This document shows, one piece after another, positions 55,097 through 55,481 of a stretch of DNA of 64,000 nt. Each line of letters begins with the position of its first letter. Within the stretch, counting starts at the first letter, position 1. Where the stretch lies: the NCBI GenBank assembly GCA_029567505.1, contig JAKPXO010000228.1:3376-67375 (forward strand), given 5' to 3'. A program made the translations under genes and the position numbers. The notes under the pieces were generated by a model. It ran no database searches, was not told the origin of the DNA, and saw nothing but the letters and a program-made list of their open reading frames with translations. This stretch comes from Acidobacteriota bacterium (lineage in GTDB: Bacteria; Acidobacteriota; Thermoanaerobaculia; UBA5066).

Positions 55097-55127
55097 CGGT
55101 GCTCCTTTCGTTCTCGGCGGGCGGGCA

Positions 55128-55161
55128 AAGAAAAACCGGCCCTCTCTCGCGAGAGGGCCGG
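55128..55161 (-). terminator. Intrinsic terminator inside the metY 5' leader (attenuator)
   Basis: On the minus-strand RNA: ccggcccucuc-gcga-gagagggccgg (11-bp perfect stem) followed by UUUUUCUUU, ending about 25 nt before the metY RBS. Confidence 0.6.
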
Positions 55162-55198
55162 TCGGGGTGCCGTCGTTCGGCTCGTTACGCTGCGGGCG

Positions 55199-55360
55199 TC
55201 ACATTCGCCGTCCCGCCGCGTACCCCGACTCCTCCTGCGAGAGCAGGGAAGAGCCGCACATGGGCATCGACATGGACATGGCGAGGACGCAGGCCGGCAG
55301 GCACGCACCACCCGCGACGAGCGTGCTCGCGAGCGAGCGCGGGGCGGCGGAGCGTTCCAT
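55199..55360 (-). CDS. Met-codon-rich leader peptide (53 aa) upstream of the metY-aspartokinase-metX operon
   Basis: MERSAAPRSLASTLVAGGACLPACVLAMSMSMPMCGSSLLSQEESGYAAGRRM*. It is the C-terminal part of ORF-track entry 55199-55687. Five ATG codons within 8 codons, in DNA where ATG is rare. Confidence 0.5.
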   Translation of the reverse strand: MERSAAPRSLASTLVAGGACLPACVLAMSMSMPMCGSSLLSQEESGYAAGRRM

Positions 55361-55481
55361 GGCGCGGCAGGGTACGGGAAGGGACCGGGGCGTTGTCAAG
55401 CGAAAAGCGGAGGAGCCGGTGCGGTCGCCGTCCGATCGGGGCGCGGACGGGAGGGGGCGCCGCCGTGCCGGTCGGCGCTCG

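Follow-up and report, generated by a model that had tools for sequence, protein, structure and literature searches.

A candidate methionine leader-peptide attenuator upstream of metY in an Acidobacteriota bacterium, with counterparts in other phyla

To our knowledge, the described regulators of methionine synthesis are protein repressors and activators, S-adenosylmethionine (SAM) riboswitches and T-boxes. In Firmicutes, T-box leaders specific for methionine read the charging of tRNA-Met and control a terminator. In a 64,000-nucleotide stretch of contig JAKPXO010000228.1 from an Acidobacteriota bacterium, referred to here as the window, the 5' leader of the methionine gene metY harbors a small open reading frame (ORF) with a dense run of Met codons, followed by an intrinsic terminator. 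We consider this locus to be, in good probability, a ribosome-mediated transcription attenuator that senses Met-tRNA, with relatives that sense both Met- and Cys-tRNA. Such an attenuator would most likely respond to charged elongator tRNA-Met, plus tRNA-Cys in the relatives, and would control metY together with the adjoining aspartate kinase and metX genes.

Among the closest described systems, the leader-peptide attenuators known from enterobacteria control trp, his, leu, thr, ilvGMEDA, ilvBN as well as pheA and include no methionine member (PMC1183508). In Actinobacteria, an RNA regulatory structure for methionine operons was not found by Seliverstov et al. (2005). Several small ORFs with Cys codons have been described upstream of sulfur genes. 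The leaderless polycysteine ORFs of mycobacteria act translationally, with a sequestered Shine-Dalgarno sequence and without an intrinsic terminator (bioRxiv 10.1101/834739). Actinobacteria have cys and cbs leaders, of which the cys leaders lack terminators (PMC1262725). In Rhodobacterales, a terminator stem and a U-run close the uORFC-8-2 motif that stands ahead of cysS (PMC8632094). Our literature search returned such Cys-codon leaders and no attenuator based on Met codons; its coverage was incomplete, so an earlier description is possible.

The metY leader and its methionine codons

The spacer between metY (ATG at 55096) and an unannotated gene for a 373-aa protein (stop at 55482) is 385 nucleotides long on the minus strand, and the features described below lie on that strand unless marked (+). 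Wholly inside this 5' leader of a biosynthetic operon, the sequence contains a leader ORF of 53 codons plus TGA (55199..55360; ATG at 55360, TGA at 55201-55199) that encodes the peptide MERSAAPRSLASTLVAGGACLPACVLAMSMSMPMCGSSLLSQEESGYAAGRRM*. The first-pass annotation had reported this ORF, the series A-M-S-M-S-M-P-M at its codons 27-34 and the rarity of ATG in the surrounding DNA, and all three agree with our reading, the window having 4.3 ATG per kb per strand. The same annotation counted five ATG codons in the ORF, a figure that has to be raised to six (the start, M28, M30, M32, M34 and M53). The putative regulatory run M28-S-M30-S-M32-P-M34-C35 (55256..55279) is the sole place in the window with at least four Met in eight codons, where 0.003 such places are expected over 64 kb in six frames. 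Only one other spot has at least three Met in eight codons, SSMMMSTP at 18570-18594 (-), which is spurious, lying out of frame and antisense within an RNase Y-like gene (17804-19405, +). The window is rich in spurious long ORFs.

Between the leader ORF and metY, the first structural gene, a terminator scan and folding place an intrinsic terminator hairpin of 13 bp with the loop GCGA (55134..55163; segments 3:4). Its sequence is GACCGGCCCUCUC-GCGA-GAGAGGGCCGGUU, followed by UUUUUCUUU, and the U-tract TTTTTCTTT (55127..55135) was recognized both by reading the sequence and by the terminator scan. The hairpin has a folding energy of -29 kcal/mol (z = -5.4), and none of 200 shuffled sequences was equally stable. 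The first-pass annotation had described an 11-bp perfect GC hairpin about 40 nucleotides after the stop and about 25 nucleotides ahead of the metY Shine-Dalgarno sequence. A perfect 11-bp core (CCGGCCCUCUC/GAGAGGGCCGG) is indeed present and the stem lies 36 nucleotides downstream of the small-ORF stop; the full stem is not purely G-C, with nine G-C pairs among 13. The distance from the end of the stem to the Shine-Dalgarno sequence AAGGAG (55102..55107), which was read from the sequence and is invariant in relatives, was measured at 27 nucleotides, close to the earlier estimate. No sequestration of this Shine-Dalgarno sequence was seen in the predicted leader folds. The terminator lies 320 nucleotides past the stop of the upstream gene, downstream of a conserved promoter-like block.

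That block consists of a -35-like hexamer TTGACA (55394..55399) and a -10-like hexamer TACCCT (55369..55374), both invariant in nine close relatives. They are separated by 19 nucleotides, and TACCCT is followed after 8 nucleotides by the small-ORF ATG. A sigma-70 consensus scan did not find a full promoter match, and a promoter role is therefore proposed from conservation. The two hexamers suggest that the small ORF starts leaderless or nearly so.

Downstream of the terminator, metY (53750..55096) encodes an O-acetylhomoserine sulfhydrylase (TIGR01326, 619 bits against a cut-off of 495) and is the first gene under the proposed control. The second gene (52986..53753) encodes an aspartate kinase catalytic domain of 255 aa without ACT domains (TIGR00657, 224 bits against a cut-off of 208.7), which aligns to about the first 235 positions only of the 407-position models. 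The third gene (51934..52989) encodes a metX-like homoserine O-acyltransferase, for which the best NCBIfam matches were MetX models, all under their curated cut-offs. All are members of the methionine pathway, and since their reading frames overlap by 4 nucleotides, with the aspartate kinase start overlapping the metY stop, they look like one operon for homocysteine from aspartate. On the basis of its missing ACT domains, the aspartate kinase may be a feedback-insensitive enzyme dedicated to methionine synthesis and controlled only via the leader.

A search with MetY in genome and metagenome collections gave a best identity of only 71-75%, and close relatives were retrieved by a search with the small-ORF peptide. 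This search identified eight homologues, all exactly 53 aa long with 79-91% identity, several of them labelled as metagenome-assembled genomes (MAGs) of Thermoanaerobaculia (Acidobacteriota). Gene order is the same in these relatives: a zinc-ribbon protein, the 373-aa protein, the small ORF, metY, AA_kinase and an alpha/beta hydrolase. In the close-clade alignment of nine sequences, the region 5' of TTGACA is unconserved and the ATG, stop and terminator are invariant. M30, M32 and M34 do not vary either; two sequences have Leu in place of M28, and two have Arg or Ser in place of C35. Codons 1-13 are nearly invariant at the nucleotide level, third positions included. Codons 14-27 are freely variable (52% invariant columns), yet without an indel or stop in any of the nine sequences. 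From codon 28 through the terminator, 94-96% of columns are invariant, compared with 66% for third and 95% for second codon positions of metY; the linker after the ORF is invariant apart from the loop of its first hairpin. In codons 28-53, four of the five changes are non-synonymous. This prevalence of non-synonymous changes, together with the nucleotide invariance, points to selection on the RNA and the Met codons rather than on the peptide, which is the pattern expected of a leader peptide. The 53-aa "hypothetical protein" of several MAGs is better annotated as a leader peptide.

Codons 1-13 (55322-55360) also contain CUCGCGAG, a palindrome identical to the terminator apex. The genes on the 5' side of the leader encode the 373-aa protein (55482-56603) and a 215-aa protein (56617-57264). 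NCBIfam matches were not found for either, and their synteny is kept in all close relatives. The counterpart of the 215-aa protein in related contigs (210 aa) has a double zinc-ribbon (DZR) match in Pfam.

Our Rfam searches, run with the gathering score over the whole window and with E <= 10 over 55050-55500, matched the leader to none of the SAM riboswitches (SAM-I, SAM-II, SAM-IV, SAM-V, SAM-VI and SAM/SAH), to no T-box and to no leader family already known; the only matches there were chance hairpin matches to microRNA or small RNA models. Because these searches did pick up SAM-I and SAM-II ahead of metY in related loci, their failure to match the leader carries weight, and it agrees with the first-pass annotation, which had not found a convincing aptamer there. 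Elsewhere in the window, at 17510-17697, 10074-10243 and 36958-37031 (all +), the searches identified 6S RNA (just above the gathering score) and three tRNA genes.

Occurrence upstream of metY in other phyla

A wider sample of 160 metY loci was collected from species-representative genomes and metagenomes (individual loci are given as L numbers). In many of them, a small ORF with a Met/Cys-rich run lies 100-350 nucleotides upstream of metY. Leaders of this kind with terminators were found in loci labelled Thermoanaerobaculia/Acidobacteria, Gemmatimonadota, Chloroflexota, Bacteroidota and Ignavibacteriota (Melioribacter), so that the conservation of a Met-rich small ORF, made a test by the first-pass annotation, is borne out both by the 53-codon homologues and by analogues under four further phylum labels. 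Examples are MTRFAVTSMCRMCMCGSPLGETDRR... in L003 (Gemmatimonadaceae), MAIHAATMMCMCMCQCVLPPGETDGR... in L019, MNANAFSRRENSRQASSLRGSMMAMPGRPRSAEDGV in L046 (Chloroflexota), MSFTEQKNLSTMMSFMMSMCMCMRSGEGFVL in L069 (Bacteroidota) and ...FFCIMMAMMCMSDLMREGII in L075 (Melioribacter). Peptide length and N-termini are completely different between phyla, and the leaders have no RNA word in common. Constant among them is the presence of ATG (and TGC or TGT) in one frame, alternating with variable codons, and the sensed codons in the relatives would be a mixture of Met and Cys.

The enrichment is specific to strand and position. Runs of at least five Met plus Cys in eight codons occur in the sense direction in 30 of 143 upstream regions and in none of the 143 in antisense or inside metY. 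Strict runs are about 60-fold denser at -450..-60 of metY than in the rest of the 876 kb of loci, counting all frames of both strands. Of the 61 leaders that have a Met/Cys run, 35 also have a strong intrinsic terminator with a U-tract. In all 35, the stop of the Met/Cys frame lies 17-48 nucleotides (median 26) before the terminator 5' arm, which is the case for the other two frames in only 12 and 18 leaders. The spacing between the last Met/Cys codon and the terminator is also narrowly distributed, with a median of 85 nucleotides and an interquartile range of 80-97. Geometry so fixed and so specific to one frame is difficult to account for without reading of that frame by ribosomes and its coupling to the terminator.

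SAM riboswitches occur in the same sample. SAM-II (RF00521) lies about 100-200 nucleotides upstream of metY in L014, L017, L032 and L076, and the leader ORF is absent there. These four loci are labelled Gemmatimonas, Gemmatimonadota or Gemmatimonadaceae, and RF00521 is described as an alpha-proteobacterial SAM riboswitch. In L069 (2556-2863), the leader unit is followed by a SAM-I riboswitch and then metY, and in L007 (80-425) and L012 (2398-2911) SAM-II stands ahead of the leader unit, with metY downstream. Additionally, L075, labelled Melioribacter sp., carries a tandem pair of Met/Cys leader ORFs (2601-2946) ahead of metY, ...VMMCMMLFITKG* and ...IMMAMMCMSDLMREGII*; each ORF has a terminator to itself and a short stretch with complementarity to that terminator's 5' arm. 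Because the unit can be replaced by SAM riboswitches, placed in series with them or duplicated, it appears to behave as an interchangeable and combinable module for methionine control. Met/Cys-rich small ORFs were also seen upstream of SAM-I riboswitches in L159 (920-1015) and L062 (65-157); in L159, the small-ORF terminator and the riboswitch are separated by a promoter-like sequence.

Six Chloroflexota leaders (L016, L024, L045-L047 and L104), located about 130-370 nucleotides upstream of metY, encode a conserved peptide MNA..FSRRENSRQASSLRGSMMSMPGRPRSAEDGV* followed by a terminator-like hairpin. About 200 nucleotides of further conserved RNA precede metY in these loci, for which an Rfam match was not found. 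Their complementary segment comes directly after the Met run.

Predicted alternative pairings

Folding of the window leader predicts mutually exclusive pairings around the Met run. In unconstrained folds, the segment 1 core (GCUCUUCC.UGC, 55243..55254), which forms the 5' strand of a predicted anti-antiterminator, pairs with GCAGGAGGAGU, and this pairing is lost once the leading edge of a ribosome passes ORF nucleotides 109-112. The core belongs to a long 1:2 helix (55201..55290), in which the Met run and segment 1 provide the 5' strand and segment 2 and UACGCGGCGGGACGGCG provide the 3' strand. The minimum free energy of this helix is -46.4 kcal/mol (z = -2.85), and two of 200 shuffled sequences were equally stable. 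Segment 2 (GCAGGAGGAGUCGGGGUAC, 55220..55238) is common to helices 1:2 and 2:3. It is separated by a linker with two small predicted hairpins, ACGC/GCGU and GCCG/CGGC (55169..55199), from segment 3 (ACCCCGAC-CGGCC-CUCUC, 55151..55168), which overlaps the terminator 5' arm. The pairs of the 2:3 fold are GUCGGGGU:ACCCCGAC, GGAGG:CCUCU and UCGC:GCGA. Without segment 1, the stretch 55245-55147 folds onto the 5' arm and loop of the terminator at -49.6 kcal/mol (z = -2.3).

A moving ribosome was simulated on transcripts ending before segment 4, with a ribosome mask of 28-31 nucleotides. The probability of the GGAGG:CCUCU pairing reached 0.80-0.96 only with the leading edge at ORF nucleotides 115-124, corresponding to an A site at M34/C35 through S38, and was about 0 without a ribosome and at all other ribosome positions. 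Once the ribosome had reached the stop codon, the 1:2 core was present again (P = 0.78). In silico, the 2:3 pairing would thus exclude the terminator while a stalled ribosome masks 1:2, as an attenuator calls for. Alternatives to the terminator are therefore predicted, namely a 1:2 helix whose 5' strand includes the Met run and a 2:3 helix that appears only with a ribosome on the last Met/Cys codons. With no SAM riboswitch hit, a conserved ORF and alternative folds, the three findings that the first-pass annotation had named as fatal to a methionine attenuator did not materialize, and its proposal is supported.

Comparable pairings are found in relatives. Leaders of the Gemmatimonadota type contain segment 1 (GGCUCUCC) and segment 2 (GGAGAG.CGGACCGG) in the codons that come after the run (C-G-S-P-x-G-E-T-D-G). 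Their segment 2, homologous to that of the window, shows complementarity to segment 1 as well as to the terminator 5' arm CCGGCCCUCUC. The clade-specific peptide motif is the translation of an RNA segment that mimics the 3' arm of its own terminator: it reads G-E-T-D-G in one clade, G/E-W-T with GUGGACCGGG terminators, and R-E-G or G-E-G with GAAGGGC terminators. L004, labelled Gemmatimonas phototrophica and with 48% GC, shows matched changes in segments 1, 2 and 3 (CUCUUC, GAAGAGG and CCUCUUC). The 50 nucleotides after the run pair at -22.0 kcal/mol with the terminator arm of their own leader and at -18.9 kcal/mol with those of others, a difference equalled in one of 20000 permutations that count related leaders separately; the corresponding own-leader test of segment 1 against segment 2 gave 181 of 20000 on the same footing. 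In the low-GC locus L069, the 11-bp 2:3 duplex has an energy of -20.8 kcal/mol against a background of -7.2 +/- 2.8, and none of 2760 windows was as good.

A covariance model built from ten leaders matched directly upstream of metY in at least 26 loci. Across 26 members, the terminator helix is 98.7% paired, with compensatory changes in seven of its 12 pairs. The model (R1) failed to realign the shifted segment 2 of the window clade, and the 1:2 pair counts of alignment A3 understate pairing. A general scan of segment 3 pairing on truncated transcripts showed a clear effect of ribosome position in L003, L084, L085, L004, L001 and L082, with a flat profile for the window, whose switch was resolved only by the scan specific to the GGAGG:CCUCU helix.

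Interpretation and rival explanations

Our reading draws on direct observations of sequence features, conservation, fixed geometry, frame specificity, complementarity and an in-silico switch, from which we infer that the small ORF is translated, that ribosomes stall on it and that there is a response to methionine. Transcription would start at or just before the small-ORF ATG, as the conserved TTGACA and TACCCT suggest, and a ribosome would translate the 53-codon leader as RNA polymerase moves ahead. When methionine is plentiful, the ribosome would clear M-S-M-S-M-P-M-C and then cover segment 2 or let 1:2 re-pair, leaving segment 3 free to form the 3:4 terminator, so that the transcript would end at the U-tract before metY. 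When Met-tRNA is scarce, a ribosome stalled at the end of the run would cover segment 1, and segment 2 (GGAGG..GUCGGGGU) could pair with segment 3 (ACCCCGAC..CCUCU). The terminator 5' arm would be sequestered by this 2:3 helix, and the polymerase would read into metY.

Several results weigh against this scheme. The full-length RNA at equilibrium always forms the terminator (P about 0.9-1.0 at every ribosome position), so the attenuator model depends on kinetics. Stalls at M28-M32 leave the 1:2 core intact, and only the last Met/Cys codons free segment 2. The 2:3 complementarity of the window is unremarkable against its GC-rich background (fraction as good 0.24), single-sequence significance of 2:3 being weak in GC-rich genomes generally (0.02-0.30), and the helix GUCGGGGU:ACCCCGAC is compatible with the terminator. 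Both permutation tests (1/20000 and 181/20000) ignore relatedness among leaders, and covariation is unavailable in the close clade, which is nearly invariant. Codons 1-13, the loops and the linker are more invariant than a minimal attenuator requires. No Shine-Dalgarno sequence precedes the small ORF, whereas metY has AAGGAG; the leaderless start is suggested by two hexamers with an unusual 19-nucleotide spacer. The variant found in Chloroflexota departs from the simple model, and no consistent 1:2/2:3 logic could be derived for its leaders.

Some of these points would suit a regulator made of RNA alone, in which an undescribed riboswitch with SAM or some other sulfur metabolite as its ligand, or a leader bound by a protein, controls the terminator without translation and the ORF is incidental. 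The constraint does act on nucleotides, with the high invariance from codon 28 to the terminator extending to loops and linker and most changes being non-synonymous; the small ORF has no Shine-Dalgarno sequence, and SAM riboswitches are the usual regulators at the same position in relatives. We nevertheless regard this explanation as improbable. No Rfam family matched even at E <= 10, and the feature that the phyla share is ATG (and TGC) alternating in frame with variable codons, not an RNA sequence. The stop of the Met/Cys frame is always found 17-48 nucleotides before the terminator, unlike that of the other frames, and the ATG start is kept throughout. L069 already has a full SAM-I riboswitch after its leader unit, so the unit is not a degenerate SAM aptamer. 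The ribosome could also be stalled by another route, either through effector-dependent nascent-peptide arrest, for which TnaC and the SAM-dependent arrest of CGS1 in plants are examples, or within translational or Rho-dependent attenuation. Within clades, the stretch after the run keeps short motifs (e.g., G-E-T-D-G, G-W-T and R-P-R-x-A-E-D-G), and the leaderless polycysteine ORFs act translationally (bioRxiv 10.1101/834739). However, the motifs differ between clades, each being the translation of RNA complementary to its own terminator arm, a strong intrinsic terminator with a U-tract follows the run in 35 of 61 leaders, and the metY Shine-Dalgarno sequence was not seen sequestered in folds; these routes are quite improbable in our estimate.

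For two further explanations the comparative data leave little room. A functional Met/Cys-rich micropeptide with its own terminator, metal-binding for example and linked to metY metabolically or by coincidence, would agree with the calling of the ORF as a hypothetical protein in several MAGs, and MxMxM motifs are similar to Cu(I)-binding Met motifs. It is made very improbable by a peptide that is unconserved outside the Met/Cys run even within the clade (codons 14-27) with mostly non-synonymous substitutions, by lengths and N-termini that differ completely between phyla, and by the placement of the unit, always directly upstream of metY at a fixed terminator distance. Hardly any credence can be given to coincidence, that is, an open frame typical of 74% GC DNA beside the terminator of the upstream gene. 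The abundance of spurious long ORFs in the window and the non-significant single-sequence complementarity would permit it, but it is contradicted by an expectation of 0.003 Met clusters per window, by an arrangement with fixed geometry in loci labelled with five phyla, and by a terminator situated 320 nucleotides past the stop of the upstream gene and after the conserved promoter-like block.

Read as a Met-tRNA-sensing attenuator, the locus resembles the classical attenuators in its short leader ORF enriched in codons for the end product, in the position of the regulatory codons in or next to segment 1, and in the predicted set of mutually exclusive 1:2, 2:3 and 3:4 helices with an intrinsic terminator before the first biosynthetic gene; extra hairpins between ORF and terminator are shared with the his attenuator. 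Unlike those systems, it would sense methionine (and cysteine too in relatives), its Met codons alternate instead of being consecutive, the ORF runs 19 codons past the run and through segment 2, the Shine-Dalgarno sequence is absent with a possibly leaderless start, and the hosts are labelled Acidobacteriota, Gemmatimonadota, Chloroflexota, Bacteroidota and Ignavibacteriota. With the Cys-codon leaders it has in common a small upstream ORF with codons for a sulfur amino acid before sulfur-amino-acid genes, a possibly leaderless start and, in relatives, the mixing of Cys and Met; the terminator stem and U-run at its end are also found in uORFC-8-2. Those leaders use Cys codons only and precede cys genes or cysS, whereas here Met dominates, the target is metY and Cys35 is not invariant in the clade. 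Neither hallmark of the mycobacterial polycysteine ORFs was found in the window leader: in place of consecutive Cys codons near the 3' end of the small ORF there is a single Cys that is replaced in two of nine relatives, and in place of a sequestered Shine-Dalgarno sequence without a terminator there is a strong terminator and a metY Shine-Dalgarno sequence that is unpaired in folds. SAM riboswitches (SAM-I/S-box, RF00162, and SAM-II, RF00521) share the genomic position and the metY target and, for SAM-I, the intrinsic-terminator output, but their aptamer senses SAM directly, whereas this leader has no SAM-family match and a conserved Met-codon ORF instead. T-box leaders bind uncharged tRNA directly and do not need translation, and a T-box match is absent here.

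We lean, with less assurance than for the single locus, toward a widespread class of Met or mixed Met/Cys leader-peptide attenuators, apparently undescribed, that control direct sulfhydrylation by metY in little-studied phyla. If this is true, classical attenuation would be extended to methionine, for which we found none reported. A unit in series with a SAM riboswitch would constitute two-input control, by tRNA charging and by SAM. A methionine attenuator also poses the question of how the charging of elongator tRNA-Met is read when the sole Met codon is the start codon as well, and the alternating M-x-M pattern and the apparent start without a Shine-Dalgarno sequence may bear on it. For phyla with almost no genetics, such as Thermoanaerobaculia, Gemmatimonadota and Chloroflexota, these leaders would offer a simple and testable regulator, together with natural examples of a leader peptide and a SAM riboswitch arranged in series.

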